A DNA stretch of 64,000 nt, taken from positions 1-64,000 of the forward strand of contig JAUVXW010000012.1 in the NCBI GenBank assembly GCA_030603385.1, given 5' to 3'. Position 1 is the first letter of the stretch. The number at the start of each line of letters is the position of its first letter. This document shows positions 7,370-28,128 of the stretch, piece after piece. The notes beneath the pieces were generated by a model. The model searched no databases, was not told the origin of the DNA, and was given only the letters and a program-made list of their open reading frames with translations. This stretch comes from Promethearchaeota archaeon (GTDB taxonomy: Archaea > Asgardarchaeota > Lokiarchaeia > Sigyniarchaeales > SOKP01). Made by a program: the position numbers and the translations under genes.

Positions 7370-9076
7370 TTATAAGGGGGTTAAAGGTTTCTGTTTCTCT
7401 TGTTCTTCGTTTGTTTTTTCTCTTAGTTTTCTTCTAAATATTTTACCAACAGCTGTTCGAGGTAATACATTTATGAATTCGACTTGACGGGGATATTTAT
7501 ATCCTGCCATTTTTTCTTTTGCCCAATCGATTATATCCCGTTCTGTAGTTTTATCTTTATATTCTGGTTTCAAAACAATATAAGCTTTTATTGTCTCCCC
7601 AATATTTGGATCAGGAACACCGACTACCCCTGCTTCTAGGACTGCTGGATGCTTAACGAGGCTTTCTTCAACTTCTCTGGCCATTACTTTATAGCCCTTA
7701 TATTTCACCATATCTTTCGTACGACCTTCTATATAGAAATACCCATCTTTATCCATTCTCGCTAAGTCCCCTGTTCTTAACCAACCATTAACAATATCTT
7801 GTTTCGTGGCTTCGGACCTTTTCCAGTAGCCTTTCATTATATTAGGGCCTTTAACCAACAATTCTCCTATTTCTCCTATTTTAAGTTCTTCTAAAGTCTC
7901 AGGGTCTACAATTATTGCATCAGTGTCGATCATAGGAACTCCAATACTTTCTGGCTTAATTTCAGGCATCCAGATCGCAGATGTTATTGCAAATGCAGAG
8001 GATTCTGTAAGACCATACCCTTGACTGACTTTAATTCCAACGACATCTTCCCACTTCTTATTAAATTCTGGAGCTAATGCTGCAGAACCAGAACCAGCCG
8101 TTTCAAGACTCGAGAGATCTCGCTCAGTAAAATCAGGAGAATTGATTATCATTTGATACATTACAGGTACTCCTACAAAAAGTGTGACTTTATAATATTC
8201 TATCGCTTCTAAAACATCGGATGGGTTAAAAGGAAACATTACGAGCATAGCAGCCAGATATAGGGAGATAATTAATATTCCAAACCCCATAGCATGACAT
8301 AATGGTAGAATTGATAAAATCACGCCTGTTCCTACATTTTCTTCATAGAGATTCTCAGATGCATAAGCAAGAGAAAGACAGCTATGAAGCAACCTATCAT
8401 GAGGCCACATTACACCCTTTGGTAGACCAGTAGTTCCACCTGTAAACATCAATGCAACTATATCATTTACGGGATCAATCTCCACATCTGGTGGTTTTGG
8501 CCTAATATCCTGTATGAAATCATTGAATGTAGTGGTATTAACTTTCTCTTCCTCTGTACCAAGTAGAATTACATTTGGAAAATTAACTTGTTTTCTTACT
8601 CTTTTAACCGTTCTAAAGTTATTTTTATGGACAAAAAAGGCTTTGACATTGCCTGCTTCTCGGATTATATGAGATACATCGCCTTCTTTCAGTAATGGGT
8701 TTACTGGGATAACGATAGCCCCAGTTTCCATTACTCCTATACAACAAAATATAAATTCCGCACAATTTTCGGACATTAAGGCGACAGAATCTCCCTTCTT
8801 AATACCTAATTGATATAAAGCATTACCAACCCTGTCAGAATAATAAAGTAGTTCGCGATACGTATATTTTTTATCAGTTGGCTTATGATAGATACAAACA
8901 TTATTTGGATACTTTCTAGCAATCCACTTTATAAACTCGTGGATAGGAATCGGATCGAATTTTATTGATTTTGGCACATCAGAAGGTTTATACTTTAACC
9001 AAGGTCTATTTGGGTTTGTATAAGGGGATTCATTTTCAAAATCTAATACAATTTTCCAATCTGAATAATCTTTCAT
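7370..9076 (-). CDS. Long-chain fatty acid--CoA ligase (ANL superfamily)
   Basis: FTGGTTGLPKG, GYGLTE, TGD, GRTKD and PRTAVGK motifs; start moved to ATG 9076 because of a GGGTGA RBS at 9082-9087. Confidence 0.9.
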   Translation of the reverse strand: MKDYSDWKIVLDFENESPYTNPNRPWLKYKPSDVPKSIKFDPIPIHEFIKWIARKYPNNVCIYHKPTDKKYTYRELLYYSDRVGNALYQLGIKKGDSVALMSENCAEFIFCCIGVMETGAIVIPVNPLLKEGDVSHIIREAGNVKAFFVHKNNFRTVKRVRKQVNFPNVILLGTEEEKVNTTTFNDFIQDIRPKPPDVEIDPVNDIVALMFTGGTTGLPKGVMWPHDRLLHSCLSLAYASENLYEENVGTGVILSILPLCHAMGFGILIISLYLAAMLVMFPFNPSDVLEAIEYYKVTLFVGVPVMYQMIINSPDFTERDLSSLETAGSGSAALAPEFNKKWEDVVGIKVSQGYGLTESSAFAITSAIWMPEIKPESIGVPMIDTDAIIVDPETLEELKIGEIGELLVKGPNIMKGYWKRSEATKQDIVNGWLRTGDLARMDKDGYFYIEGRTKDMVKYKGYKVMAREVEESLVKHPAVLEAGVVGVPDPNIGETIKAYIVLKPEYKDKTTERDIIDWAKEKMAGYKYPRQVEFINVLPRTAVGKIFRRKLREKTNEEQEKQKPLTPL

Positions 9077-9134
9077 AGTGTTCACCCTAAAAAAAATTAC
9101 ATTTATGTAAACTTTGAGTTTTATCAAAAATGTA

Positions 9135-9166
9135 TGATCTAAAAATAGATCACCTGTATTTATAAA
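9135..9166 (-). promoter_or_regulatory. Putative TATA box (TTTATAAA) with adjacent 7-4-7 palindrome TGATCTA-N4-TAGATCA upstream of the acyl-CoA ligase
   Basis: Perfect inverted repeat 9135-9141/9146-9152; TTTATAAA at 9159-9166. Confidence 0.4.
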
Positions 9167-9232
9167 TGTTATTTAAACAAGGAATATAGTAAAACTATAG
9201 AAAAAAAAAAAAGAAATACTAAAGTAAAAAAC

Positions 9233-10567
9233 TTATTCAATTTGAAAGAGAGACTCTTCAAACTCGGGTCTTCCTTTATATTTTGCCATTAGGAATCCAG
9301 CACCCCCTTTAGTTATATTCTGAAACATCGAAGCAGGAAGTTCGATTCCAATTTGACTAAACGCGTGTCTTACATCATCCATTGAAGGAGGACAGCCTTT
9401 AATTGGAATCATCTCTTTAATATTGGGGTGATCTTTGTTCTTATTATATTGACATTGACCAATTAGAATGGTTTTATTCATCCCAGGAGTAGGTTCCATA
9501 AGTTTACCATTTAAAAATTCGACATTATCAAATGGTTTACCTTTCCTCGATTGCCATGCACCTTTGATAATAAGTAATAAAGTTCCATTAATTCCTGAGC
9601 AATATGTGCACAGACTACTGTCATATTTATGATACTTTAATCCTTTTACTCCAATTCTTTCTAAAGGAAGTGGGAGATCTCCAGCATCATTATATATAAA
9701 ATCCCATTCATGATGGGAAGCTAAATCATCTAGCTTTTCACCAACAATTTCAACATCAGATAAATCCATAGGTCTTTTTCTATCTTTGGCTGCTTGTACT
9801 AAATGAGGAACATCATCAGGTTCTATACCTAGCAATTTAGAACCTACCATGTCTACTGATAGGATATCAGCCGAAGCAACAAGAATATTTTTTCTATGAG
9901 CCTTTCCATCAATAGCAGGCCCTCGTTCAAGAGTATAGATCCCATCAATGATAGTCAATACTTTTTTTAGTTTGTTAGGTAATTGGGCAACATTATAATG
10001 CAAATCTTTAACTGGATCATCACTGTGAAACTTCTTACGAGAAGCATAGTTGATTAATCCCTTCAAATTCTTAAACCCTAATGTAACAACAGCTTGAGAA
10101 TGAGTCTTTAATACAGGAATATCTATAACAACATCAGCGGCTAAAGCAACCGAACTGAAATTGACTTTAAAACCGGTTCCTAAATCTATCTTCTCAAATG
10201 GATGTTCAAAAGTATTGATTGGTTTCACACCATATCTTTCTTTAAGAAGATTATACCCTAATTTTTTAAATGCATCTGCTGCAGTTTCTGTATCTTTTAT
10301 ATCAGCGGTTACGATCCCTTCTCCTATTGAAATATCATCAATTCCTCGTTCTTTAAGTAAAACAACAACATCCTCAATAACACGGGAAGATGTAATCACA
10401 CCCCATTTTGGGAAATTGGAAAAGCGATTCCAGTATACGATGTTAGGTTTAATAAATATTTTTGCATCCTTGGGGATCTCATCAAATAAATTTACTAATT
10501 CAACTAATTTCCTAACGGATTCAAGAGGTTTCTCGTACTTTACAATAGAAACTTTTGATTTACTCAT
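9233..10567 (-). CDS. DUF362-family protein (probable Fe-S)
   Basis: IKPN, IPVLKTH, FKNLKG, CTYC, GQC and GCPP motifs. Confidence 0.8.
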   Translation of the reverse strand: MSKSKVSIVKYEKPLESVRKLVELVNLFDEIPKDAKIFIKPNIVYWNRFSNFPKWGVITSSRVIEDVVVLLKERGIDDISIGEGIVTADIKDTETAADAFKKLGYNLLKERYGVKPINTFEHPFEKIDLGTGFKVNFSSVALAADVVIDIPVLKTHSQAVVTLGFKNLKGLINYASRKKFHSDDPVKDLHYNVAQLPNKLKKVLTIIDGIYTLERGPAIDGKAHRKNILVASADILSVDMVGSKLLGIEPDDVPHLVQAAKDRKRPMDLSDVEIVGEKLDDLASHHEWDFIYNDAGDLPLPLERIGVKGLKYHKYDSSLCTYCSGINGTLLLIIKGAWQSRKGKPFDNVEFLNGKLMEPTPGMNKTILIGQCQYNKNKDHPNIKEMIPIKGCPPSMDDVRHAFSQIGIELPASMFQNITKGGAGFLMAKYKGRPEFEESLFQIE

Positions 10568-10670
10568 ATAATTACACCTACATATATTTAATATAGAAAT
10601 GAATATGGGATATCTTAAAAATTAATTTGTTATGAAGAATAGTTTAGAAAAAATGAAAAATAAGATATCA

Positions 10671-11786
10671 TTAATTGGAATTTTTAAATATTGGGATGAT
10701 TTCCTCACTTATTATTTTAGTTACGTCAAAATATGTAAAGGGAGCGTTTCTACGCGATACCCCGTGTTGGAGCTCCAAGATGAAGTGCTGTGCACCCGCG
10801 TCAACAAATTTCTGTATCTTTTTGATAACATCTTCCGTAGTACCAATCATACCGCTTTCTTTTATTAATTTATCAGGAATATCCTCTGCCAATGGTGCTA
10901 ATTTCCTGTAATTAAACTTTGTTACATCTTCTCTATCATATACCAGTAGACTCATCTCATCACTACTAAAGCCGGTAGCCTCTTTGAATATTTGTTCATA
11001 TTCATCTTTCCAATATCCCAATTTCTTTAGCGTTCTTGGTTGCATACTTAATCCAGCTTTCATACCCCTATAAAAAGAGTTTAACTTTTCCTCGTCGTCA
11101 TTTATGAAAATTCGCGCAAAATATCCAAAAGTAAAATTATTTGGATCTCTTCCTTCTTTTTTCATGACATCTAGAATTGTATTCCGATTATCCTTATATA
11201 ATTCTGGAAAGGCGCCCAAAGGCATCCAACCGTCAGCTATTTCTGCTGTAAGCTTTAAGGTTTTGGGTCCATTTCCAGCTATCCACACAGGAATTTTGCT
11301 TATTGGCTTAGGGAGCATTACAGCATTTTTAGTTTGGAAATATTTTCCATTAAAAGTTACATCTTTTCCCTTTTCCCAAAATTCCTTCATCAATTTTATA
11401 GATTCACTCATCTTAGTAACAGCATGGTCAAATGGAATATTATATGCCTTTAAATTCATTCCCTCGCCAGCGCCGATCCCCAAAATGAAATTTCCTTCAG
11501 TCATGTGGTTAAGGGTAGTTGCCATTTGAGCCAAAGATGCCGGATGGAATCTGTAAGGATCAGTTACAGCAGACCCTAAAATCTTTCCTTTAGCTAATTC
11601 TGAGAATGCGCCAAATACCGGCCATAAACAAAAAAAATCATCTATAGCACTACCAGGAATGCCACTTAGGTGATCTGGAAGCCAGATAGAGTCCCATGCT
11701 TCTTGGCTAGCTGTTAAGACCTTCTTCTTAAGAAGATCCCATGCTTGAGAATAATATAGATTAACTCCAAATTTAATGTCTGTCAT
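10671..11786 (-). CDS. LLM-class (probably F420-dependent) oxidoreductase
   Basis: WLPDH, LGIGAGE and ADGWMP luciferase-like motifs. Confidence 0.85.
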   Translation of the reverse strand: MTDIKFGVNLYYSQAWDLLKKKVLTASQEAWDSIWLPDHLSGIPGSAIDDFFCLWPVFGAFSELAKGKILGSAVTDPYRFHPASLAQMATTLNHMTEGNFILGIGAGEGMNLKAYNIPFDHAVTKMSESIKLMKEFWEKGKDVTFNGKYFQTKNAVMLPKPISKIPVWIAGNGPKTLKLTAEIADGWMPLGAFPELYKDNRNTILDVMKKEGRDPNNFTFGYFARIFINDDEEKLNSFYRGMKAGLSMQPRTLKKLGYWKDEYEQIFKEATGFSSDEMSLLVYDREDVTKFNYRKLAPLAEDIPDKLIKESGMIGTTEDVIKKIQKFVDAGAQHFILELQHGVSRRNAPFTYFDVTKIISEEIIPIFKNSN

Positions 11787-11873
11787 TATAATACTTGTAT
11801 TTTAATTAATTTAAGATATTTTAAAGTAGTTAAATTGAAATTTAAGTTTTATTTTATCAATCATTTTTACTTC

Positions 11874-12413
11874 TTATCTTTCTTTCAACCACTCTTCTTG
11901 TAGAATACTCATAAAAATAGTATCATGATATTCTCCATTGACGAACATTGCTTGCCTCATTCGGCCTTCTTCTACAAATCCTATTTTGTTATAAGAATTT
12001 ATAGCTCTACTATTGAACTCATAAACACGTAACTGGATTCGGTTCAAATTCACAGTTTTAAATCCATACTCTAATAATAATTCCATTGCTTCTGTTCCAT
12101 ACCCTTTACCTTGGTATTCTTTTTCTCCTATAATGATTCCTACTTCTCCAACTCGATTTTTCCAATCTATTGCATGCAACCCACAATTTCCAATAAGCTT
12201 TTCTGCATCATTTTCATCAGTAATAATAATACCAAAAACAATAGTATCATTTTGATTCTTTAGGTTTTCAATCCAATCTTCCTCCATCATGCGAGTAAGT
12301 GGACGAAAAAAAGTTAAATATTGAGTTATTTCTGGATCATTTAACCACTTGAGATAAGATTCAACATACTCTCTTTTAACTGGACCAAGTTTTATTCTGT
12401 CTCCTTTTAACAT
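11874..12413 (-). CDS. GNAT acetyltransferase, RimJ/RimL type
   Basis: QGKGYGTEA, NSRAI..Y.KIGF and EGRMR motifs. Confidence 0.9.
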   Translation of the reverse strand: MLKGDRIKLGPVKREYVESYLKWLNDPEITQYLTFFRPLTRMMEEDWIENLKNQNDTIVFGIIITDENDAEKLIGNCGLHAIDWKNRVGEVGIIIGEKEYQGKGYGTEAMELLLEYGFKTVNLNRIQLRVYEFNSRAINSYNKIGFVEEGRMRQAMFVNGEYHDTIFMSILQEEWLKER

Positions 12414-12492
12414 AAATGAAAAAAATCGGTATTTGAATAAAAAATTAATTAAATAAATTTAGAATAAAAAAAGAAAAATAGAAATAAACTTT

Positions 12493-15378
12493 TTAAAAGG
12501 TTATACCATAGCTGCGAGCTGCATATTTTACAATCTCAAATGAGGCAATGCAGATTAACGAGATCAAGAAACACATTAACCAATCTAGTCCTGTTAAATA
12601 CATGAACATAAAATTAATTCCTGCATCTGCGAGCGCTACTTGAACGCCAGGAATGTACATTAATGCTAGAAGGACAAAGAATAATAATCCTATCAATAGA
12701 TACATAAATTTGTTACTATCTTCTTTTATGCTTCTCATTAGAGACTTATTTGGTCGTCTGATTTGAAATACTAAAAATGATTCGCAGAAAAATAAGGTAA
12801 CCATAAGCATTGTTAGAGTTTTTGCTTCCACTAATGTAACTCCAGAAGGAAGCAAATAAGCTGTTTTAGATGTAAAGAGATAAGCGTTGTCAAGACCACC
12901 AAAATCTAAAATGTCTGGTGTTGGATATACTCCACTAAAAGTGATTGAATAAACCACAACCATGCTAATAGCTAATAAAATTCCAAATATGAATAAAAGA
13001 ATAATAGTGTTTTTCGATAGTATCTCTTCTGAATCTTTTGGTTTTTCTTTCATTACATCTTCGGATGTTGAGTCAAATGTAAGGATTAAACCTGGAAACA
13101 TATGTAAAGTAATTGCAAGAAAGATCCATTGATTGTAAAATTCAAGATTGAGGAAATATGGCAAATCTAAAATAATTGCTAATATGAATTGAACAATCCC
13201 TTCAAAAACATTGATGCAAATATAAAAGAACACTACAGCACGGATTCTTGCAAATATACCTCTCCCATGATGAATGCCAGTTACAATAGAATTAAAAGAA
13301 TCGTCTGAGATTACCATATCTGAAGCCTCTTTAGCTACATCGGTTCCTGTGATTCCCATTGCCACACCTGCATCTGCCATATTTAAAGCTAAAGCATCAT
13401 TTACCCCATCCCCTGTCATGGCGACGACTTTTTTTTGTGCTTGATAATTTTCCACGATATCCTCTTTATGTTCTGGCGAAACCCGTGCAAATACACGTAT
13501 TTGCGAAAATTCTTCGTATGATTCAATATTTTTAACATCTTTACCCTCTGCTACAATATCGCTTTCTTGAGTTATAATTGCTATTTGTGAAGCAATTGCT
13601 CTAGCTGTAGTTGGCGAGTCACCGGTAATCATTACAACTTCTACTCCCGCTTCATGGCATTGTTCTACAGATTCTCTCACACCCTCTCTTGGAGGATCTA
13701 ATATTGTTACAAATCCAATAAAGGTTAAATCTGATTCACTTACTTTCCTCCCCTCATCTCCTTCAGGAGGAATTTCATCCATTTCTTTATAACATAAACT
13801 CAGTATTCTGTATCCTTGATTTGCATATAGATTTACTATTTCCATTACTTTTGTTTTAATTTCTTGACTAAACTCAATTTCTTTATCATTATAAATAATT
13901 TTCTTACACAAAGGCAATAAAACTTCACTTGCTCCCTTTGTAAAAGAAATGTAGACATTATCTCTCTTATAGAGTTTGGTCATCCTTTTTACAGAGGAAT
14001 CAAAAGGGTATTCTGTTATAGGCTTAAATTCATCAAGAAGATAATCACCCATAATTTTCTGAAACAGCACATTCAATGATCCTTCTGTTGGACTGCCAAT
14101 TACCTCCCAATTATAGTGTGTTTTCCCGGAGATCTGTATTTCATTTTTTATTAAAGCAGAATTGTTATTTAAAAAACCTGCAGTTAAAAGTAATTTTAAA
14201 TGTGGATATTCATCAATGTGCTTTACATAAATAAAATCCTTAGGATCATCCATTAAAACTATGTCTCCATCAGGAGTATACCCGCCACCTGTAACTCTAA
14301 AAATTGAACCATTAGTCCAAACATGTTGAACGGACATCTGATTTTTAGTCAATGTTCCCGTTTTATCAGAACAGACAACACTAACACGCCCTAAACTGTC
14401 TACTGATGCGAGATTTCTTATAATTACACCATGATGGGCCATTGCCAGAACCCCTGTTATCAAAACAATCGTTACGAGTAGAGGAATATTTATAGGCATT
14501 AAATCAAGTGCAGAATTTAAACTTTCAACAATCTCGAGTCGAGTAAATCCACTTGCGATCCAAATTACCATCAATATTATAAACCAAAATATAAAAACAG
14601 CCAGTCCTAACCATTTACCAAAATTATTCATTTTCTCTCGAATTGGGATTTCACTGGTTCCAGCTTCTTCCAGACCATGAGAGATCTTACCAATTTCAGT
14701 ATCTCCCCCCGTTTTTACTACAATAGATTTTCCAGTACCTGTTGTGATATAGGTCCCATAAAACACCATATTCGCACGTTCGCCTATAGTAATTTCCTTT
14801 TCGCTTATTGCTTTTCCAGATTCAACTTTTTCTACGGGCTCACTTTCTCCTGTTAATGATGCTTCATTTACTATGAGGTTAAAAGCTTCAACTATTCTAG
14901 CATCCGCAGGAATTTTATCTCCTTGATTTATAACTAAAAGATCTCCCTTAACAATATCTTTTGTAGGAACCTCCATCTTTTGTCCATCTCTTATAATAGT
15001 AGATGTAGGAGCAGTTAGTTCGCGTAAAGCTTTAAGTTTTTTAGTTGCTCTGTATTGTTGAATAATAGCAACCAAACAATTAAGTCCAACAATTCCTAAA
15101 GTTAAGGCTATAAAGGTTAGGTTTCCTTCTCCACCAAAAACCCATGCTAAGAATAATATTAAGGACCCAATAAGATATATAACGATTAACCAATTAAATA
15201 ACGGAGCTAAATATATTTTAATGAACCCTTTTGAGACTTTGGGGATCTCATTTAAACCATATTCTTCCAATCGTATTGTAGCTTCCTTTTGAGTTAATCC
15301 TTTATCAGGATCAGTTTGAAGTTTTTTATAAATTTGCTCTAATTCAAGATTATAAAAGTTTTCTTCTGTTGCTTCCAT
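12493..15378 (-). CDS. P-type ATPase, P2A-like scaffold with atypical transport site
   Basis: LTGES, CSDKTGT, KGA, MITGD and TGDGVND motifs; M4 PINIP instead of PEGLP. Confidence 0.9.
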   Translation of the reverse strand: MEATEENFYNLELEQIYKKLQTDPDKGLTQKEATIRLEEYGLNEIPKVSKGFIKIYLAPLFNWLIVIYLIGSLILFLAWVFGGEGNLTFIALTLGIVGLNCLVAIIQQYRATKKLKALRELTAPTSTIIRDGQKMEVPTKDIVKGDLLVINQGDKIPADARIVEAFNLIVNEASLTGESEPVEKVESGKAISEKEITIGERANMVFYGTYITTGTGKSIVVKTGGDTEIGKISHGLEEAGTSEIPIREKMNNFGKWLGLAVFIFWFIILMVIWIASGFTRLEIVESLNSALDLMPINIPLLVTIVLITGVLAMAHHGVIIRNLASVDSLGRVSVVCSDKTGTLTKNQMSVQHVWTNGSIFRVTGGGYTPDGDIVLMDDPKDFIYVKHIDEYPHLKLLLTAGFLNNNSALIKNEIQISGKTHYNWEVIGSPTEGSLNVLFQKIMGDYLLDEFKPITEYPFDSSVKRMTKLYKRDNVYISFTKGASEVLLPLCKKIIYNDKEIEFSQEIKTKVMEIVNLYANQGYRILSLCYKEMDEIPPEGDEGRKVSESDLTFIGFVTILDPPREGVRESVEQCHEAGVEVVMITGDSPTTARAIASQIAIITQESDIVAEGKDVKNIESYEEFSQIRVFARVSPEHKEDIVENYQAQKKVVAMTGDGVNDALALNMADAGVAMGITGTDVAKEASDMVISDDSFNSIVTGIHHGRGIFARIRAVVFFYICINVFEGIVQFILAIILDLPYFLNLEFYNQWIFLAITLHMFPGLILTFDSTSEDVMKEKPKDSEEILSKNTIILLFIFGILLAISMVVVYSITFSGVYPTPDILDFGGLDNAYLFTSKTAYLLPSGVTLVEAKTLTMLMVTLFFCESFLVFQIRRPNKSLMRSIKEDSNKFMYLLIGLLFFVLLALMYIPGVQVALADAGINFMFMYLTGLDWLMCFLISLICIASFEIVKYAARSYGITF

Positions 15379-15500
15379 ATTGGATCTACCAATTTTAGTA
15401 TTATAATTTAGAGATAATTGAATTCAAATATTCAATATAATAATAAATAACCTATAATAATTATGCCTTTTAATATTACTTTTTTTTAAAAAATAGGTAT

Positions 15501-16040
15501 TTAGCTCCAATTTTGTTTAAGTTCTTTTTTAGTAATTTTAGATACGTTATCAACTGCAAATAGAATGAAATTACAACATTTATTTTCCCAAGCTCTAGTT
15601 TTAACATACTGTCTAAGATCGATATTCAAATCAAAGCCACAAAGTTCCTCACACATTACTGAACCAAATTCTTCTTCAAACCTTTTAGCAAATCTTACAG
15701 CTTTACCATATACTTTTGGCACATCTAGATCTTTTATTTTATCCTGACCTCCCATTATAATCCCAATAGCTGCTAGGGCACCAGAAATAGCGCCACATGG
15801 TCCTTTCCATCCATTTTTACACTTGAATTGGGCAAAACCGCTAAATGGAACAGCTAGGTTGTTAAAGTAATCATATTTTCCTTCTCCTAAATTTAAGACA
15901 TCTACGATACTATTAAAAGTATCAGCAGCACAACTATTTCCAATATTTTTTCCCATAGGGGGAAGTGTATCTTTTAATTCGATAAGTTTTTCATCAAAAC
16001 GTTTGATAATATCTGTTTTTAAAGAGTTGAGGTTACTCAT
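15501..16040 (-). CDS. C_GCAxxG_C_C family putative redox/metal-binding protein
   Basis: SCA, GPCGAISGA, CEELCG and terminal CC pattern. Confidence 0.75.
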   Translation of the reverse strand: MSNLNSLKTDIIKRFDEKLIELKDTLPPMGKNIGNSCAADTFNSIVDVLNLGEGKYDYFNNLAVPFSGFAQFKCKNGWKGPCGAISGALAAIGIIMGGQDKIKDLDVPKVYGKAVRFAKRFEEEFGSVMCEELCGFDLNIDLRQYVKTRAWENKCCNFILFAVDNVSKITKKELKQNWS

Positions 16041-16095
16041 AATAGGTTTATAAGATAGGTTATAATATTTAAAGTTGACTTAATTATAAAGATAA

Positions 16096-18951
16096 TTAGA
16101 AGAAAACCTTCTTCTTCCTTGCTACATTTTTATAAATTTCAATACCGAGGATACCAGGTAAAGCTAGTAATATACATATTAACCAGTCCGTGCCACTAAG
16201 GAACATAAAATTTATTTGCAAATTTAGGCCAAAAACATCATTTATATAATAATTTATGGAATAAGAAAAGCAAATAAATAGCACGTGTAATGTTAACGTA
16301 AATAGACAAATAACCAATAGAGAAATGGATAATTCTTCTTTTAAACTTTTAGAGAGAGATGAATTTGGCCTTCTGAAGGTCCATATGAAATTTGTTTCAA
16401 CAATAAATATTGTTGTAATGAACATCGTTCTTGCTTTTTGAGCCAGTTCTTGTCCTGGAACAACATAACTAATATTTGGGTTTAAATTCCATTCATTTAA
16501 TGGGATGGCACCCCCTAAAGTTAATTGTAACGCCAATACTAATCCTATTCCCATCAAAAACGCTTGTACCAATAACATTATCCACAGATTCTTATTCAAT
16601 ATTTGTTCTTCATCTCTAGGAGCTTCGCGCATAATATCCTTAGGATGTGTATCAATCACCAGTGCTAAGGAAGGTAGTGAGTGTACAATGCCAAAAATAT
16701 AAATATGTTGCCATTCTGAACTAAAGAGATCAAATATTGGTATGAATTCATAAGAGAAAAAAATAATCGATTCCATTATATTCAGGCATATGAAGAAGTA
16801 GATTATTGTTCTAATTTTTGAAAAAAGACCACGACCTATTCGAACTCCTTTTTCAATTGAAGTAAAGTTATCGTCTGAGATAACCATATCAGCAGTTTCT
16901 TTAGCTACATCAGTTCCTGTTATTCCCATAGCAATACCTGCGTTCGCTAATTTTAAGGCAAGAGAATCATTTATTCCATCGCCAGTCATAGCTACGACGT
17001 GATCTTTATTTTGATAGTGATTTACAATGATTTCCTTGTCAGAAGGCTCCACTCTAGCGAATACAGACACTTTTTCAAATTCAGTTTCACTGAGATCTTT
17101 AATTTGTTTTCCTTCTGCTAAAACATCTCCTTCTTTATAAATGCTCATTTGAGTAGCAATAGTTTTTGCTGTGGCGGGATGGTCACCAGTTATCATAATA
17201 ACTTTAATATCACCAGATTGACATTCCTCTATTGATTCTTTAACACCTATACGGGGAGGATCCATAATTGAAACATATCCTAAAAATATTAGGTTATCTT
17301 CGATAACTTCACGTTTTGGTTGATTGATATCACTTAACATTTTATAAGCAATAGATAATGTTCTAAAACCTTGACTTGCTCGCTCCCTTATTTCTTCTAA
17401 GATTTTTGTTTTATTATTATTATCAAATTTTTCAATATTTCCATTTATTTCAATCTGAGAGCAAATGGTAATAATATTCTCAGGGGCTCCTTTAGAGAAT
17501 ACAAAAATATCTTTATTAGTTTCCTTTAATTCATAGATCGAGCTCATACGTTTTAATTCGGAGCTAAAAGAAAATTCGGTAAGAAGAGTATATTTTTTTT
17601 TTACATCATATGGAATATAACCTGCCTTTTCAGATAAAACAAGCAAGGCTGCTTCGGTAGGGGATCCTAATGCACGTCTTACTGCCATTTCTTTTTTGTC
17701 TCCTACCCTAACTTTTACATCTTCGAAAACAAGTTGCGCGTTATTATTCAAAACAATTGAATCGATGAATTTCTGAAATGTAGAATTATCGTTAAGATGG
17801 ATAATTCCACCATTGAATGATATCTCGCCTTCTGCATCATACCCGGAACCACTAACATCATACTCTTTCTCATTTATCCAAAATTTTTCAACTGTCATCT
17901 CGTTCTTTGTAATTGTACCAGTTTTATCAGAACAGATAACAGATACACGACCCAGTGATTCAATTGCTGATAAATTTTTGATAATTACTCCGTGTTGGGC
18001 CATGCTTAAAACACCTGTTATAAGAACAAGAGTACTTAATAAAGGTAAATTTATTGGAAGTATATTTGTTGCCCTTAAAATAGAACTTACTAAAGCACTA
18101 CTAATTTCTGCTTGAATAAAATTTCCTTCATAAGCTAAAAGAATGAATTTATAAGATATTAATATGAATAAATTGATCAATACGATTGTTCCCAAAATAT
18201 ATCCCAATCTATTCAGTTTTCGCGTCAATGGAATATCTTCAATACTCCCCATTTCATTTAGAGTTGTAGATATTTTTCCTATCTGTGTATTCACACCGGT
18301 ACCCGTTATTAAGGCTTTTGCCCTCCCAGTATTTACATATGTTCCCATAAACACCATATTGGTTTGTTTTTGAATGGGTACATCATTTTTCTCTAATATT
18401 TTATGGGTCTTTTCTACAGGTTCGCTTTCACCAGTTAAAGGTGCTTCATCTACTCTCAAATTAATTTGATTAATAATTCTTCCATCTGCTGGAGTTTTAT
18501 CTCCTTGATCTAGTAGAATTATATCTCCAGGTACCAATTCTCTGTTGGGAATCTCTAGTTGATCTCCATCCCTTAGAACCGTAGCTTTCAAAGCAGATAT
18601 TTGCCTTAGAGATTCCAGTGCTTTTTGGGCTCTAAATTGTTGAACAATAACAGTAGCAGAATTTATTACTACAACTGTGAATGTAATGACCGTTTCACCA
18701 GGAGAACCCAAAATAACAACTATTACTCCAGTAATAAGAAGGATGACTATTAAAAAATTAAAAATTGGAGCAAGATATATTTTCCAAATAGATTTTTTAA
18801 TTTTTGGTAATTCATTGTATCCTGATTTTAGATATCTGTTTTCTAAATCAGAAGATTTTAATCCTTGATCAGGATCAGTATTGAAATGTTCTAATAGTTC
18901 ATCAACTGATTGAGAATAATAAGTTTCATTGGAATTTTTTACTGTTGACAT
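16096..18951 (-). CDS. P-type ATPase paralog, P2A-like scaffold with atypical transport site
   Basis: LTGES, CSDKTGT, KGAPE, MITGD and TGDGIND motifs; M4 PINLP. Confidence 0.9.
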   Translation of the reverse strand: MSTVKNSNETYYSQSVDELLEHFNTDPDQGLKSSDLENRYLKSGYNELPKIKKSIWKIYLAPIFNFLIVILLITGVIVVILGSPGETVITFTVVVINSATVIVQQFRAQKALESLRQISALKATVLRDGDQLEIPNRELVPGDIILLDQGDKTPADGRIINQINLRVDEAPLTGESEPVEKTHKILEKNDVPIQKQTNMVFMGTYVNTGRAKALITGTGVNTQIGKISTTLNEMGSIEDIPLTRKLNRLGYILGTIVLINLFILISYKFILLAYEGNFIQAEISSALVSSILRATNILPINLPLLSTLVLITGVLSMAQHGVIIKNLSAIESLGRVSVICSDKTGTITKNEMTVEKFWINEKEYDVSGSGYDAEGEISFNGGIIHLNDNSTFQKFIDSIVLNNNAQLVFEDVKVRVGDKKEMAVRRALGSPTEAALLVLSEKAGYIPYDVKKKYTLLTEFSFSSELKRMSSIYELKETNKDIFVFSKGAPENIITICSQIEINGNIEKFDNNNKTKILEEIRERASQGFRTLSIAYKMLSDINQPKREVIEDNLIFLGYVSIMDPPRIGVKESIEECQSGDIKVIMITGDHPATAKTIATQMSIYKEGDVLAEGKQIKDLSETEFEKVSVFARVEPSDKEIIVNHYQNKDHVVAMTGDGINDSLALKLANAGIAMGITGTDVAKETADMVISDDNFTSIEKGVRIGRGLFSKIRTIIYFFICLNIMESIIFFSYEFIPIFDLFSSEWQHIYIFGIVHSLPSLALVIDTHPKDIMREAPRDEEQILNKNLWIMLLVQAFLMGIGLVLALQLTLGGAIPLNEWNLNPNISYVVPGQELAQKARTMFITTIFIVETNFIWTFRRPNSSLSKSLKEELSISLLVICLFTLTLHVLFICFSYSINYYINDVFGLNLQINFMFLSGTDWLICILLALPGILGIEIYKNVARKKKVFF

Positions 18952-19052
18952 ATTTGTTATAAATGTGCTAATTGTTAAATAATAAATATCATAAATTCTA
19001 AAGTTTTTAATGGTTTATAATTTCTTAAAAATTCTTAATGATATTTAAAGAA

Positions 19053-19997
19053 TTAGAGTTTTAATTCTTGAGGATCTCCCAAGATCTCTTTTAATAAGTG
19101 ATATTTCTTTCTAATAGTAGTACTTGAGAATTTGCTATATCTTTCAATAACACTCTGTGTAAAAATCTTTCTATTCTCCAAGGTTTGTCCGATATAATAG
19201 ATTAAGCCAGCTGTGAAAGCTTTATAATTTAGGTTTTGGATTTGTTTATATGGAATTAAGTTGAGGATCTTATCTACTAACAACTGCATATTAATTTTCG
19301 TCTTTTCAAATTGAGACTTATTTGAAAAGAATTCTTGGACTTTCTCATATGGAATACTATTTAAATCTTTTTGAAAAACAATTTTTATTTTATTTTTAAT
19401 CTCTTTTTCTAATGATGAAGCATCTTTTTTCTGTTCTTTTAACATTTTTTCAGTTCTTTTTGCCTTTAACATGGCATTTGATAACATCTTTTTATTGACC
19501 TTATGACCTAACTCCTTGGTAACTCCAATAAATTCTTCAATACGAATATTTGTGGTGTCTTTTATTTCCAACCAAATTATAGCCAGAAATATTATAACCA
19601 TATTTTGATAATTATGTCTGTGATATTTATTATAGCGTAAATAACGATCTTTAATCTCTCGGTATTTTACATTATCTATATTTAACCCAATACCATGACT
19701 TTTTAGTAATTCAATGGTTTTCTTTTGTTCTGTGAAATCGGATTCGTAATCGCGAAACCACTTTTCGAGTGTCTTTATCCGTTCATATTTTTCACGTATG
19801 ATTGGATCTTGCAAAGCTTTTGAGTCGTTAACACGGATACGCCTTTCATAATCTCTTTGAGACTCTGAATAATATTCACCGTAAGTTTGTTTATCCTCAG
19901 AAGCTAATTTTTCTTCTAAGATTAAACCACAATCTTGGCAAATTATATCTCCTCCCTCCCGTTTCACATTTTTGTGCTGGCACTTCGAGGTTTCCAT
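19053..19997 (-). CDS. Divergent TFIIB/TFB-like protein (Zn ribbon plus cyclin-like repeats)
   Basis: CxH...CQDCG ribbon; C-terminal AGLIY...TQ..I...SSTTIRK resembling the TFB second-repeat HTH. Confidence 0.65.
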   Translation of the reverse strand: METSKCQHKNVKREGGDIICQDCGLILEEKLASEDKQTYGEYYSESQRDYERRIRVNDSKALQDPIIREKYERIKTLEKWFRDYESDFTEQKKTIELLKSHGIGLNIDNVKYREIKDRYLRYNKYHRHNYQNMVIIFLAIIWLEIKDTTNIRIEEFIGVTKELGHKVNKKMLSNAMLKAKRTEKMLKEQKKDASSLEKEIKNKIKIVFQKDLNSIPYEKVQEFFSNKSQFEKTKINMQLLVDKILNLIPYKQIQNLNYKAFTAGLIYYIGQTLENRKIFTQSVIERYSKFSSTTIRKKYHLLKEILGDPQELKL

Positions 19998-20166
19998 ATC
20001 TATATCCTTATTACTCCTTAAAAAAAAATCAATTTATGTTTTTTATTTGAAATATTATTAAATTTTCTTAAAAATAATAATATTAATAATTTTTATTAAT
20101 TTCAAAAACAATAATAAGTAAAAATATAATTGCATAAAAAATTTTCTTACAATTTTAATAGAAAGT

Positions 20167-20742
20167 GTGATGGTAAACATGGAACATAAGAAAGTGTCAA
20201 AATTGCTGGAAATTATCGGTTACATTTTTATGAGCCTTTCTTGCCTTGAGATTACTTTTTTTATCTCATTAAATTTCATGGAATTTAATAATATAGAGAC
20301 AAATCCAATTCTTCTTTCAGAATTTATTTACGGATCTAATTATATATCCTTAACAGGAACAGTATTATGGTTAATTCTAATTATTTCTATGGGGTGTTAT
20401 GCAATAATTGGCTTCGTTATGTTCAAAACTGCGAAGAGTAATAAGATTAAAAATAATTTATTAGCTAAACTTATGGTTGTTATTGGAATGGTAATTTTAC
20501 TCGGAGCTCTTGTTAAGATGAATTACATAGTTCTGTTAGGTAAGACTGATATATCTACACTTTCTGTGGACATTTCATTCCAATCGGCTTTATATGATTT
20601 TGATATTACACCAATTTTACCTGCGATATTTTGGGTATATTTCATTTCTGCCACATGTTGCTATATGATCGGGGGATTAGTAATAACTACCCTTGGTATT
20701 AAATGGAATTTATTAATAGAAAAACCAGAGGATACAAAATAA
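20167..20742 (+). CDS. Hypothetical 4-TM membrane protein
   Basis: Four hydrophobic segments; fills the intergenic space. Confidence 0.7.
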   Translation: MMVNMEHKKVSKLLEIIGYIFMSLSCLEITFFISLNFMEFNNIETNPILLSEFIYGSNYISLTGTVLWLILIISMGCYAIIGFVMFKTAKSNKIKNNLLAKLMVVIGMVILLGALVKMNYIVLLGKTDISTLSVDISFQSALYDFDITPILPAIFWVYFISATCCYMIGGLVITTLGIKWNLLIEKPEDTK

Positions 20743-20801
20743 TAAAAAGAAATTAAAAATATAAAAAGGTTAATTTATTTTAACCAAAATTGTGAAATTC
20801 T

Positions 20802-21728
20802 TTATGTAAGCTTACCTTTAATCTGTTTGGCACGGCTCCTCAATGTAACCTCAGTAATTTTAGCAATAAAAGCTACTTTTGATTGGGTTTTTCTAATAGA
20901 ACCATTCTTTGCGGCAATATAAATGCAAGCAGCAGCTAAACCCTTCGGATCTTTTCCTGTTCGTTTTAATCCATTCTTCGAAGCATCTTTCAACATATTA
21001 ATTGCGTTTTTTTGAATTTGAATTGGAAGGTCTAATTCATTTCCAAAACGAAATACCAGAGATTCGGCAGTTATAGGTTGATATCTAAGGTTTAATTCCG
21101 GTAAAACCTCCCTAATTATCATTGCAAGACTCCTATGAACAGTTCTTCTTGGTGTTAAAGAGGCTTCACATACCTCATCTAATAATCGGGGAAAGTCATG
21201 AACACGAATCGCAGCATATAAGGATCCTGCTATAAATCCGTTAATTGACCGTCCCATTGTTAACTTTTTCTTTGCTACAATGCTATATATTTTCCAAGCT
21301 GTCTCTGCAATATATTCTGGAATATTAAGCTTAGACGTAAGCATTTTTAGTTTTGGTTTAGCTTCCCAAAAATTCCTTTCAATACTCGAAATTAAAGAAT
21401 TTTGGATTTTTGAAAGACGAGAAAAAAGAGCTTGTTCTTTCGCACCAATGCTCTTCCCTTTGCTGTCAGTCTTCGTATTAGGGAGCATTGTACGGGGTCC
21501 AAAGTCTCTCCAGCGAGGTTCTGTCCTACGGCGGGTCTGTATTTCCTCCACAGTATAAGCTCTGCGCTCATTTCCCACAAAAGTTCTTTCAAATATTAGT
21601 CCACAATTTAAACACACTTTATTGCCGTCTCTAGATTCAATAAATGGAGTTTCACAACAAAAAGTTTGAGGTACGACGTTCTCATCTACTTTACTATTAA
21701 AATAACGATTACGGTATTGTTCGTTCAT
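20802..21728 (-). CDS. tfb: Transcription initiation factor IIB
   Basis: Zn ribbon CC...CLNCG, ERRAY B-reader, GRS, GKDPKGLAAACIY and ITEVTLR motifs. Confidence 0.92.
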   Translation of the reverse strand: MNEQYRNRYFNSKVDENVVPQTFCCETPFIESRDGNKVCLNCGLIFERTFVGNERRAYTVEEIQTRRRTEPRWRDFGPRTMLPNTKTDSKGKSIGAKEQALFSRLSKIQNSLISSIERNFWEAKPKLKMLTSKLNIPEYIAETAWKIYSIVAKKKLTMGRSINGFIAGSLYAAIRVHDFPRLLDEVCEASLTPRRTVHRSLAMIIREVLPELNLRYQPITAESLVFRFGNELDLPIQIQKNAINMLKDASKNGLKRTGKDPKGLAAACIYIAAKNGSIRKTQSKVAFIAKITEVTLRSRAKQIKGKLT

Positions 21729-22034: not shown

Positions 22035-23750
22035 ATGAAAATTGCCAGAATTAATGTTGATACTGAAAAATTAAAATATGAAGATATATCAGGAGAATCA
22101 AAATACTTCCTATTGGGAGGTCGTGGTTTAAGTTCTCAAATTATTCATGATGAAGTGCCACCATTATGTGACCCTTTAGGTGAGGAAAATAAACTAATTC
22201 TTGCTACGGGGTTACTTACAGGAAGTCCTTTTCCTTGTTCTGGGCGTACTTCAGTTGGGGCAAAAAGTCCGTTAACTAAGGGGATAAAAGAAGCGAACGT
22301 AGGTGGTCGCCCCTCCATAATGCTAGCCTCTTATGGGATAAGAGCATTAGTTTTAGAAGGGAAGTCACCGGAATTAAAATTTATTTTCATTGATAAAGAT
22401 GGTATTAAATTTGAATCTGCTGAGAAATATAAAGGATTTGGGAATTACAAGCTTCATGAGGATTTAGCTAGAAAATACGGAAAAAGATTAGGAATTTATT
22501 CAATTGGTCCTTCTGGAGAATATTTAATGAAAGCTGCTAGTGTTGCTACGAACGATTTAGAAGGATACCCAAGTCGTCATGCAGCTCGAGGTGGTCTAGG
22601 TGCCGTTATGGGGTCTAAGAAGATCAAAGCGATTATTATTTTTTCTAGGAAAAGTTCAGAAGTCCGAATATCTGATATAAAAAAGTTTCGAGAAGTCTCA
22701 AAACCATTTGCAAAAGAACTGGCAGAGTCCAAGAAGAATTTTTCAATTTATGGTACTTCAAATATGGTTAGAGGGATGAATGCTTATGGAGGGTTGCCTA
22801 CCAAAAATTTTAGAATGGGTTCATATGATAAAGCCATTGATATATCAGGGGAGAGACTTCATGAGCTAGTTACTGCTAGAAATGGAAGGAAACGCGTTCC
22901 ATGTAGTCCTACATGTGTTATTAAATGTTCTAATATAATTGTTGATGAGAATGGAAACCATGTTACCTCAAGTCTTGAGTATGAAACTATCTTCGCAAAC
23001 GGTTCTAACTTACTAATTGATAACCTTGATGATATAGCGAGAATAGATCATTTATGCGATGATGCTGGGATCGATACCATTGAATTTGGAGTTACAATGG
23101 GTGTTGCTATGGACGCCGGCAAAGTTCAATGGGGTGATGCTCAGAAAGTATTTGAAATTTTAGAAGAAATCAAAGAAGGATCGAAAGTCGGTAAACTCTA
23201 TGGGAATGGTGTTTGTCATCTTGGAAAAGAAATCGGTTTTGATAGAATTCCTCATGTGAAAGGTCAAGGAATATCAGGTTATGATCCACGAGTCTTCAAA
23301 GCTATGAGTGTCACATACGCAACATCTCCAATGGGCGCAGATCATACTTCTGGTGCGGCTATCGCGGGAAGAGTTGCAAACCAAACGAAAGATTATGGGG
23401 AACTCACTGAAAATAAAGGAAAACTGGATTTATCTTATGAATTGCAACTTTATACTACTATTTTAGATTCTTTAGGTTGTTGTTATTTCATAGGACCGAG
23501 TTATGAAAATATGGAAATTGTGCAAGATGCATTAAACGCAATGTATAATTTAGAATTAACCAGGGAAGATGTAATTAACATTGGAAAGAGTATTTTAAAG
23601 GCTGAATTAGATTTTAATGCTAGAGCAGGAATTCTACAAGATAGGAATGATTTACCAGAATTTTTAAGAAAAGAATCATCTGAACCTACTGGTTTGAAAT
23701 TTACATTTACAAAAGAAGAATTAAATCAGTTCTGGAAAAAATTAAATTAA
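22035..23750 (+). CDS. aor: Aldehyde:ferredoxin oxidoreductase (W-dependent family)
   Basis: GGRG, KSPLT..IKEANVGG, AARGGLGAVMGSK, EYET and GADH motifs. Confidence 0.92.
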   Translation: MKIARINVDTEKLKYEDISGESKYFLLGGRGLSSQIIHDEVPPLCDPLGEENKLILATGLLTGSPFPCSGRTSVGAKSPLTKGIKEANVGGRPSIMLASYGIRALVLEGKSPELKFIFIDKDGIKFESAEKYKGFGNYKLHEDLARKYGKRLGIYSIGPSGEYLMKAASVATNDLEGYPSRHAARGGLGAVMGSKKIKAIIIFSRKSSEVRISDIKKFREVSKPFAKELAESKKNFSIYGTSNMVRGMNAYGGLPTKNFRMGSYDKAIDISGERLHELVTARNGRKRVPCSPTCVIKCSNIIVDENGNHVTSSLEYETIFANGSNLLIDNLDDIARIDHLCDDAGIDTIEFGVTMGVAMDAGKVQWGDAQKVFEILEEIKEGSKVGKLYGNGVCHLGKEIGFDRIPHVKGQGISGYDPRVFKAMSVTYATSPMGADHTSGAAIAGRVANQTKDYGELTENKGKLDLSYELQLYTTILDSLGCCYFIGPSYENMEIVQDALNAMYNLELTREDVINIGKSILKAELDFNARAGILQDRNDLPEFLRKESSEPTGLKFTFTKEELNQFWKKLN

Positions 23751-27022: not shown

Positions 27023-27574
27023 TTATATAAATATTATTATAAATAAAATAATGAATAATGGGGTTAGGAAATCGGCTAGCGATGTAATAAATGGTATAAG
27101 AAAATTATTCGGGTCCATACCTCGTTTAAATAAGTATATTGCGCCTATAAATAGCAAAATAAACATCATGAGAAAAATTATTAGAATCGTGAAAGTTATA
27201 ATCAAAACTATTATTAGTGGATTTACTAGCTTTACTCCCGAAATAACTGCAATAGAGTACCCTAAAAAAATTAAAACAACTAAGCTTAATAAAAGAGTCA
27301 TAAGAAGACCATAAAAATCTTCTTTCAACCTTTTAGATTTCTGGATTTTAGGTAATATGGTACCAATATAAAGATGCGTAGTTAATCTTGACACCAGAAC
27401 TGTTGAAATATCTCCAATTAGAGAGTTTAATGCTGGTAATATTAGAAGTAATATAGGAATTGTATAGAGTATCTCTTTATTTGATGATAACAATGTACCA
27501 GAAATTAAACCAAATATAGAGGATAAGATTACAACTATTATTGATTCTTTGAAAATCTTTATGAAATATTTCAT
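27023..27574 (-). CDS. MgtE/SLC41-type membrane domain protein (half transporter)
   Basis: PX6GD and DPNNFLIPFITSLAD motifs; ATG 27574 overlaps the upstream TAA (TAATG). Confidence 0.8.
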   Translation of the reverse strand: MKYFIKIFKESIIVVILSSIFGLISGTLLSSNKEILYTIPILLLILPALNSLIGDISTVLVSRLTTHLYIGTILPKIQKSKRLKEDFYGLLMTLLLSLVVLIFLGYSIAVISGVKLVNPLIIVLIITFTILIIFLMMFILLFIGAIYLFKRGMDPNNFLIPFITSLADFLTPLFIILFIIIFI

Positions 27575-28128
27575 TATGACACCCCCAACATTATTAATGT
27601 CAAAAAGAAACAAAAAACTGTAAAAAAATCATCAATGGCAGTCATAACAGGATTTACTACATTATTTGGGTTCAATCCTTTTTTAAACACAATATAATTT
27701 AACCCTGTTGAACACGGAATTGAAATAGAAAGGGTTAGTATTATTGAAACTATTGGAATTAGAATAAAGTGAATAGTAGGAAGAACTTTGAAATCAAATA
27801 TTATCGAATTCAAAATAATTGAAAATATACCAATGAAAATTGCCGTTATAATTGCCAAAATAAATGTAGCAAATACATTTTCAATCCATGATCTTTTGGT
27901 AAAGTCTCCAATAATTAGATCGCGAGAGGTTCTTGCTATAAAAGGACCACTTAAGTTCCCTCTTAACGAAAGAAGGGCGGGAATCATTAATATTAGGGCA
28001 AGAAAACTTTCAAAAGGCAAAATAAAGATAGAAAGGATTATCCCTGCTAGGATATCTCCAATAATTGATACTGTTTCTGATGGGAAGGTCTCCTTAACGA
28101 TTTTACCTTTAGTGTCTTGGGTCTCCAT
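27574..28128 (-). CDS. MgtE/SLC41-type membrane domain protein (half transporter)
   Basis: PALLSLRGN (PX6GN) and NPNNVVNPVMTAIDD motifs. Confidence 0.8.
   Translation of the reverse strand: METQDTKGKIVKETFPSETVSIIGDILAGIILSIFILPFESFLALILMIPALLSLRGNLSGPFIARTSRDLIIGDFTKRSWIENVFATFILAIITAIFIGIFSIILNSIIFDFKVLPTIHFILIPIVSIILTLSISIPCSTGLNYIVFKKGLNPNNVVNPVMTAIDDFFTVFCFFLTLIMLGVS

Follow-up and report, generated by a model that had tools for sequence, protein, structure and literature searches.

Two neighbouring genes in a 64,000-nucleotide stretch of a Promethearchaeota archaeon genome (contig JAUVXW010000012.1, positions 1 to 64,000, referred to below as the window) encode P-type ATPases, P0001 and P0002 (pumps A and B), which belong to a large and separate archaeal branch that is grouped with the P2 pumps by hidden Markov model (HMM) scores, structural-alignment identity and phylogenetic trees. 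Both genes are predicted, with fair confidence, to encode working P2-type ATPases that have a single re-engineered cation site. The branch, termed here the PxNxP/His family, is apparently undescribed as far as a search of the literature reaches.

Transport-site residues of pumps A and B

The P-type catalytic motifs TGES, DKTGT, KGA, TGD and GDGxND were found in both proteins and TIGR01494 scored 284 and 272 bits for pumps A and B, respectively, relative to a cut-off of 62.3, placing both in the P-type superfamily. The two pumps are 40% identical across their full length and share the Pfam domains Cation_ATPase_N, E1-E2_ATPase, Cation_ATPase, Hydrolase and Cation_ATPase_C. The terminal domains (PF00690 Cation_ATPase_N and PF00689 Cation_ATPase_C) were above their cut-offs in both pumps, consistent with P2 architecture, and an AlphaFold2 model of P0001 showed the ten transmembrane (TM) helices of that architecture and matched P2 structures over residues 5-960.

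Residue equivalences were taken from alignments to known pumps. HMMER placed PINIP of pump A on PEALS of Listeria LMCA1 and the M6 segment qwiflAitlHmfp on qllfiNlvnDslp, and against the C-terminal half of the Na,K-ATPase it placed the M6 His on D808 and the M5 motif NVFE on NIPE. A MAFFT alignment with the canonical P2A pump that this genome also encodes paired PINIP with PEGLI, NVFE with NFDE, AITLHMFP with NIATDGIP and the M8 Glu with the M8 Glu. The equivalents of SERCA E309, N796 and D800 are therefore Ile, Ala or Phe, and His, so that all three site II ligand positions are changed, and the equivalents of N768, E771 and E908 are kept in both pumps (Table 1). D800 of SERCA is essential for both Ca2+ sites. 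In wider context the M4 motifs read MPINIP (pump A) and LPINLP (pump B) and the M5 motifs CINVFEG (pump A) and CLNIMES (pump B), and a family-specific motif, RRPN, comes after the M8 Glu of pump A.

A preliminary description of this locus had reported complete catalytic motifs in both paralogues, PINIP and PINLP in M4, a His at the D800 position and retention of N768, E771 and E908. These readings were reproduced by the motif search, by HMMER against LMCA1 and the Na,K-ATPase and by MAFFT against the same-genome P2A pump, and the motif coordinates given were exact to the base. The description had also called the alignment with SERCA gap-free, which holds for the transmembrane registers but not for the loops, where indels occur.

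Table 1. Coordinates of the pump genes, their motifs and neighbouring genes in the window (aa, amino acids; M2 to M8, membrane helices)
Feature	Position	Strand	Remark
Pump A (P0001), P-type ATPase, 961 aa	12493-15378	-	Open reading frame (ORF); clade A of the PxNxP/His family
Pump B (P0002), P-type ATPase, 951 aa	16096-18951	-	ORF; clade B of the PxNxP/His family
TGES, pump A	14842-14853	-	
TGES, pump B	18424-18435	-	
DKTGT, pump A	14353-14367	-	
DKTGT, pump B	17914-17928	-	
GDGxND, pump A	13396-13413	-	
GDGxND, pump B	16966-16983	-	
M2 QQYRA, pump A	15046-15060	-	Gln108 at SERCA E109 (cytoplasmic entry funnel); Glu in 94% of canonical pumps
M4 PINIP, pump A	14482-14496	-	Ile296 at SERCA E309 position, Asn297 at G310 position; HMMER to LMCA1 and MAFFT
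M4 PINLP, pump B	18043-18057	-	
M5 NVFE, pump A	13201-13212	-	Asn723 and Glu726 at SERCA N768 and E771; site I ligands kept
M5 NIME, pump B	16771-16782	-	
M6 stretch, pump A: QWIFLAITLHMFP	13093-13131	-	
M6 stretch, pump B: QHIYIFGIVHSLP	16672-16710	-	
M6 His759, pump A, codon CAT	13102-13104	-	Position of SERCA D800 and Na,K-ATPase D808
M6 His757, pump B, codon CAC	16681-16683	-	
M8 Glu866, pump A, codon GAA	12781-12783	-	Aligned with M8 Glu of canonical P2A; presumed SERCA E908 position
M8 Glu852, pump B, codon GAA	16396-16398	-	
GNAT acetyltransferase	11874-12413		After the pump genes
C_GCAxxG_C_C family protein, 179 aa, putative redox-active	15501-16040	-	Between pumps A and B
314-aa protein, N-terminal zinc-ribbon-like CxxC...CxxC, no Pfam match	19053-19997	-	Directly upstream of pump B
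Predicted multi-pass membrane protein, 191 aa, no Pfam match	20167-20742	+	Transcribed divergently from the TFB-like gene
Bona fide TFIIB gene	20802-21728	-	

Conservation of the family signature

When 1.84 billion representatives were searched exhaustively with HMMER, the scores broke off sharply at approximately 515 bits. Above the break were about 40 clusters (50% identity) carrying P-[IVFWLM]-[NS]-x-[PVI] in M4, NxxE in M5, a His in M6 and a Glu in M8, and below it all sequences read PEGLP with NLVTDGLP. Pro295, Glu726 and His759 (pump A numbering) were invariant in 36 diverse members that were 33-56% identical to P0001, and Asn297, Asn723, Q750, P762, Glu866 and R874 were at least 90% conserved in the same set. 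The residue at the E309 position is Ile in the window pumps, with Val, Phe, Trp or Leu taking its place in other members, T799 was lost in the Asgard clades, and TGES was present in nearly all members.

The same substitutions recurred in 31 full-length representatives relative to 89 canonical pumps and again in 33 orthologues drawn from 21 genomes. Some of these orthologues that belong to clade B have an Asp for the M5 Asn, a replacement that would be typical of a cation ligand. Specificity-determining positions, conserved in the family and rare in canonical pumps, were sought between the 31 members and the 89 canonical pumps and only 15 were found. Those related to transport were Q56 to Pro in M1, E109 to Gln in M2, G310 to Asn together with AV to LL in M4, D800 to His in M6, an Arg-Arg pair after M8 and a change of GDGVNDAP to GDGVNDAL in the hinge. 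As the changes are few and cluster on M1, M2, M4 and M6, the rewriting centres on site II and the cytoplasmic funnel. The view that selection rather than drift was behind the changes shared by the two paralogues, put forward when the locus was first described, is upheld by the invariance of His759, Glu726 and Pro295 across the 36 diverged members, and the signature likewise held when conservation was checked in the 33 orthologues.

The hinge reads GDGVNDAL in pump A (13390-13413, minus strand) and GDGINDSL in pump B (16960-16983, minus strand); its Leu is kept in 87% of the family, whereas 94% of canonical pumps have GDGVNDAP. The protein P0148 of the representative library has lost the signature, with PVSIP in M4, SIAE in M5 and no M6 His (ITQFA-P), and may be a degenerate or re-specialised pump.

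Distribution

Matches to the family profile (E <=1e-100) were obtained in 382 of the 400 species genomes from this phylum and in 89 of the 90 high-quality ones. This survey scored only two candidates per genome and most genomes gave two matches, although a handful at the weak end (E ~1e-117 to 1e-150) may represent canonical pumps. At least 15 genomes of the taxonomic family to which the window belongs have tandem pairs. Members came from sources named Loki-, Thor-, Heimdall-, Hod-, Odin-, Hermod- and Sigynarchaeota, and a basal clade labelled Thermoplasmatota had PWSFP in M4, NxxE, STH and the M8 Glu, with Met or Leu at the E109 position. No eukaryotic member was among the top matches of the exhaustive HMMER search. 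A contig scan for members outside Asgard returned almost only canonical pumps among the matches listed, which says little on range, and a search of the ESM Atlas returned generic P-type clusters only. The proposal of an undescribed Asgard subfamily thus stands in so far as the clade is distinct and undescribed within the literature searched, but the Thermoplasmatota clade makes the family archaeal and not strictly Asgard.

A proposed single-site cation pump

In the proposed mechanism the usual phosphorylation and dephosphorylation cycle would run. Site II is erased by a hydrophobic residue (Ile, Val, Phe or Trp) in place of E309, by Ala or Phe in place of N796 and by the bulkier Leu-Leu pair after the M4 motif. 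Site I persists in altered form as a set of two Glu, two Asn and a His: M5 has kept its Asn and Glu and M8 its Glu, the unwound part of M4 carries an added Asn (replaced by Ser in Thermoplasmatota), and the invariant His takes the place of the M6 Asp common to both SERCA sites. One small cation per cycle would then bind between M4, M5, M6 and M8, with the His acting either as a direct ligand or as a built-in positive counter-charge, and such a counter-charge would allow dephosphorylation without counter-transport. Built-in counter-ions of this kind have been described as Lys or Arg in P1B-2, P3A and P4 pumps and as His in P1B-4 pumps (PMC10654040).

Known pumps resemble this arrangement in part. 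The P2A pumps LMCA1 (PDB 9euq, 6zhf), SPCA1/PMR1 (8iwp, 7yag) and SERCA1/2 have the same 10-TM P2 architecture, terminal Pfam domains and TGES, and SERCA also shares the M5 NxxE and the M8 Glu, but the P2A site II ligands E309, N796 and D800 are gone from the family. LMCA1 and SPCA have kept site II and lack site I, which is the reverse of the pattern seen here. The P3A pumps (AHA2, PDB 5ksd, and a Methanobacterium pump at L104:3155-5221) likewise have a hydrophobic residue at the E309 position (PIAMP or PVAQP compared with PINIP) and a single site with an M5/M6 acid-base pair, which would permit electrogenic transport without a counter-ion. In P3A pumps, however, the Asp is in M6 and an Arg in M5, whereas the PxNxP/His family has its acids in M5 and M8 and its base, the His, in M6. 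The P1B-4 pump sCoaT offers an analogy only, having a His in the membrane site as an internal counter-ion or ligand (PMC10654040); P1B-4 pumps have 8 TM helices and an SPC motif in M4, unlike the family, and the P1B pumps of the genome are a distant outgroup in the tree.

It is quite likely that the cargo is an inorganic cation of some kind, H+ included, and the narrower choice of H+, Na+ or K+ falls somewhat short of an even chance. A monovalent cation or H+ would be preferred over a transition metal, followed by Ca2+ or Mg2+ and finally by a lipid or organic cargo. Since the family is near-universal in Asgard archaea, usually with two paralogues and with no conserved partner gene, its distribution points to a housekeeping role in ion homeostasis rather than accessory resistance.

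Several observations weigh against a cation pump. No ion-specific signature for a cargo and no metal-binding tail were found in the pumps, an Rfam scan of 11000-21000 gave no riboswitch or other RNA element (E <=1), and the neighbouring genes differ between lineages, with nothing shared and no hint of a substrate. The geometry of the His/Glu/Asn cluster is one that we infer from the alignment with SERCA. The PISL motif of P4 pumps is also hydrophobic at the E309 position and has a polar residue two places after the Pro, so the cargo of such a site may be non-ionic.

Placement among the P-type classes

Both pumps were below the cut-off of every class-specific NCBIfam model tested (Table 2) and scored low on the P1B models. 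As a calibration, ten ordinary or variant prokaryotic P2-like pumps gave 590-725 bits on the IIA2 model, themselves under the cut-off, and a true archaeal P3A pump gave 920 bits on the IIIA model. The lower IIA2 scores of the window pumps therefore indicate a family that is P2-like but unusually divergent.

Table 2. Scores of pumps A and B on class-specific NCBIfam models
Model	Pump A (bits)	Pump B (bits)	Cut-off (bits)	Remark
IIA2 (PMR1-type, TIGR01522)	483	442	798	
IIA1 (SERCA-type, TIGR01116)	422	450	703	
IID (ENA-type, TIGR01523)	417	400	645	P0001 aligned full length
IIC	385	359	946	
IIB	364	399	507	
IIIA (TIGR01647)	338	337	615.5	
IIIB	306	321	611	
V (TIGR01657)	234	233	618	
IV (TIGR01652)	110	111	431	

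The P1B pumps of this genome served as the root of a posterior mean site frequency (PMSF) tree built without eukaryotic P2A-D, P3, P4 and P5 references. The family was monophyletic in this tree (Shimodaira-Hasegawa-like approximate likelihood ratio test, SH-aLRT, 100), as it was in a further tree with the same support, and had a stem of length 0.6, with pumps A and B in separate clades, and was located beside LMCA1/PMR1-type bacterial pumps; the P3A reference was outside the clade of P2 pumps plus the family. In the approximately unbiased (AU) test an alternative with all sampled P2 references as one clade excluding the family had a p of 0.57, which leaves positions nested in P2A and sister to P2 both compatible.

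Membership of known classes was checked class by class. For the P2A Ca2+-ATPases (SERCA/PMR1-type) both equivalog cut-offs were missed and the site II ligands are gone, and for the P2D ENA-type Na+/K+ efflux pumps the TIGR01523 scores were insufficient. P3A kinship was discarded on the TIGR01647 scores, the replacement of the M6 Asp by His and the position of the P3A reference in the tree. P5 kinship was discarded on the TIGR01657 scores, an M4 without PP(E/A)LP, the lack of any P5-specific Pfam match and the low structural-alignment identity (17-19%), and P4 kinship on the TIGR01652 scores, the lack of any P4-specific Pfam match, an equally low structural-alignment identity (15-20%) and trees that put the family with P2.

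A Methanobacterium metagenome-assembled genome contained a P2C-like pump (L104:130-2886; PEGLL, IDLGTD) adjoining the true P3A pump used for calibration (L104:3155-5221), a pair that fits published remarks on archaeal P2C and P3A pumps.

Structure comparison

The AlphaFold2 model of P0001 had a mean predicted local distance difference test score (pLDDT) of 80 and a predicted template modelling score (pTM) of 0.71. By sequence, the closest PDB entries were those of LMCA1, SPCA1, Na,K-ATPase and SERCA (E 4e-118 to 5e-96). For the model, Foldseek ranked SERCA2b and SPCA1 in E2P-like states best, followed by Na,K- and H,K-ATPases. A VIA-align comparison over 48,000 chains was headed by PfATP4 (Z 31.6), followed by AHA2 (Z 28.3), SPCA1, SERCA2, MgtA, PMCA and LMCA1 (Z 26.6-28.3 for this group), with P4 and P5 pumps at Z 21.6-26.6. 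PfATP4 retains SERCA-like ligands (PMC12537908) and its top rank would therefore reflect fold and conformation rather than the site. As the P2 to P5 classes all gave conformation-dependent values of Z 22-32, fold alone does not discriminate between them. Identity in the structural alignments to P2A pumps was 30-31%, compared with the lower values for P4 and P5 given above.

Comparison with P4 lipid flippases

It is highly improbable that the two proteins are flippase-like pumps whose cargo is a lipid or some other amphipathic or organic compound, for instance the head group of an archaeal lipid or an organic cation. Such a pump would carry its cargo along M2-M4-M6 with the hydrophobic M4 residue as a gate, Asn297 in the role of the Ser of PISL, and the Asn/His/Glu cluster reading a polar head. 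The M4 motif P-[IVFW]-[NS]-x does resemble PISL, since in the P4 pumps Drs2, ATP8A1 and Neo1 an Ile directly follows the M4 Pro and has a small polar neighbour (PISL compared with PINI), and P4 pumps match the P-type fold at Z 25-26.6. The charged funnel residue E109 is also replaced by a neutral one, namely Gln, with Met or Leu instead in the Thermoplasmatota clade. The Ile of the two window pumps occupies a position that varies within the family, and the second Pro of the P2 type is kept. One M4 isoleucine is, as far as the sequences go, the sole tie to lipid flippases.

Against a flippase, the A-domain motif is TGES rather than DGET, and the two buried Glu, invariant or nearly so in the family, have no counterpart in P4 pumps, which do not need them. 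P4 pumps have an M5 Lys that acts as a built-in positive counter-ion (PMC10654040); it is absent from both window pumps, whose M5 instead has the Asn and Glu of P2 pumps (NxxE). Neither pump had a Pfam match to PhoLip_ATPase_N or PhoLip_ATPase_C at E <=1e-3, and a genome-wide TIGR01652 search returned only pieces below the cut-off, in which the window pumps did not outscore the canonical Ca2+ pump encoded on contig C50. The structural-alignment identity to P4 and the placement of the family with P2 in the trees likewise oppose a flippase. PF03381 (Cdc50/Lem3) had no match in the genome, but it had none in the control genomes either and some P4 pumps do not need Cdc50.

A link to the origin of P4 and P5 ATPases, suggested in the preliminary description, was not borne out given the low TIGR01652 and TIGR01657 scores, the lack of P4 or P5 Pfam domains, the low structural identity and the lack of a eukaryotic member among the matches searched. 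The family has no present bearing on the origin of lipid flippases.

Genomic context and divalent or transition-metal cargo

The same genome encodes a canonical P2A Ca2+-type pump (C50:19607-22444, plus strand) with PEGLI, NFDE, NIATDGIP and the M8 Glu, and its presence makes a non-Ca2+ role for pumps A and B plausible. That part of the earlier substrate proposal (a lipid, an organic ion or a metal in place of Ca2+) is retained, whereas the acidic residues still present in site I speak for a cation rather than the lipid also proposed. Orthologues labelled 'putative Ca2+ ATPase, TC 3.A.3.2.21' have been reported in all five Asgard proteomes studied (PMC7997004). A pump for Ca2+ or Mg2+ that uses the site I position only, mirroring the site-II-only LMCA1 and SPCA, would agree with this label, which databases also give to Asgard P2 pumps, with the kept site I ligands N768, E771 and E908 and with the lack of a CorA or CNNM homologue in the genome. 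It is nevertheless improbable, as all members have His for D800, the Asgard clades lack T799, the genome also encodes a canonical Ca2+-type pump with both sites, the window contains MgtE-domain genes, and His is a rare ligand of Mg2+ and Ca2+. The label 'Ca2+-ATPase' given to these pumps by databases and by the one transportome study to cover Asgard P-type pumps (PMC7997004) is probably wrong.

A transition-metal pump (Mn2+, Fe2+, Zn2+, Co2+ or Ni2+), which would bind its metal through the M6 His along with two Glu and one or two Asn and would be a P2 counterpart of the P1B exporters, is a more serious candidate although still unlikely. A His with two carboxylates and an Asn is a typical ligand set for such metals, the His is invariant in the 36 members, Asgard habitats are often rich in reduced metals, and no Nramp homologue was found in the genome. 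On the other hand, no metal-binding domain, chaperone or metal regulator lies nearby in any lineage, three P1B-type pumps are already present in the genome (contigs C11, C33 and C36), and metal exporters usually have a patchy distribution while this family is near-universal and duplicated. The P1B pump on C36 had no CPC or SPC motif in a simple pattern scan.

Naming the ion from missing transporters was considered too weak an approach, with CorA, CNNM and Nramp homologues absent from the genome and MgtE present. Two adjacent small ORFs in the window (27047-27436 and 27601-27984, both minus strand; open frames of 201 and 187 aa) had PF01769 as their only match (54 and 57 bits), and from these matches the pair looks like a split or minimal MgtE-type Mg2+ channel.

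Gene neighbourhood

In the window's own taxonomic family the genes are arranged in the order DUF362, GNAT, pump A, sometimes the C_GCAxxG_C_C gene, pump B, a transcription factor B (TFB)-like gene and a gene for a small membrane protein. A second Asgard family has only one pump, located beside a subtilase, a ketopantoate hydroxymethyltransferase and an MFS transporter. A separate AT-rich region with TATA-like boxes lies upstream of each pump gene, from which we infer that each may be driven by its own promoter.

The C_GCAxxG_C_C gene was seen between the pumps only here and at one other sampled tandem locus (L138), and is not a conserved partner. The 314-aa protein upstream of pump B (19053-19997, minus strand) keeps its position in 10 of 21 loci and resembles a divergent TFB/TFIIB paralogue, and the 191-aa membrane protein (20167-20742) recurs next to the paired pumps at 10 loci from the window's Asgard family. 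Genes further out (7370-11786, minus strand, and 22035-23750, plus strand) encode an AMP-binding enzyme, a DUF362 protein, a luciferase-like monooxygenase and an aldehyde:ferredoxin oxidoreductase, which belong to ordinary metabolism and have no evident connection to the pumps.

Implications

The specificity of P-type ATPases is set by a handful of membrane residues and the PxNxP/His family inverts the usual pattern, with site II erased, site I kept and the central Asp changed to His. Within the archaeal phylum that lies nearest to eukaryotes, almost all genomes encode the family, as a rule twice. Knowing which ion is moved would put right current reconstructions of ion homeostasis and bioenergetics in Asgard archaea and would add a new specificity class to the P2 pumps. 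If a lipid or organic cargo were true, the family would be a flippase-like transporter derived from P2 pumps, either convergent on the eukaryotic P4 and P5 pumps or anticipating them. In the less exotic alternative, if true, Asgard cells would rely on these proteins as their principal electrogenic pump for H+ or Na+, an early instance of the eukaryote-style energising of the plasma membrane by a P-type ATPase.

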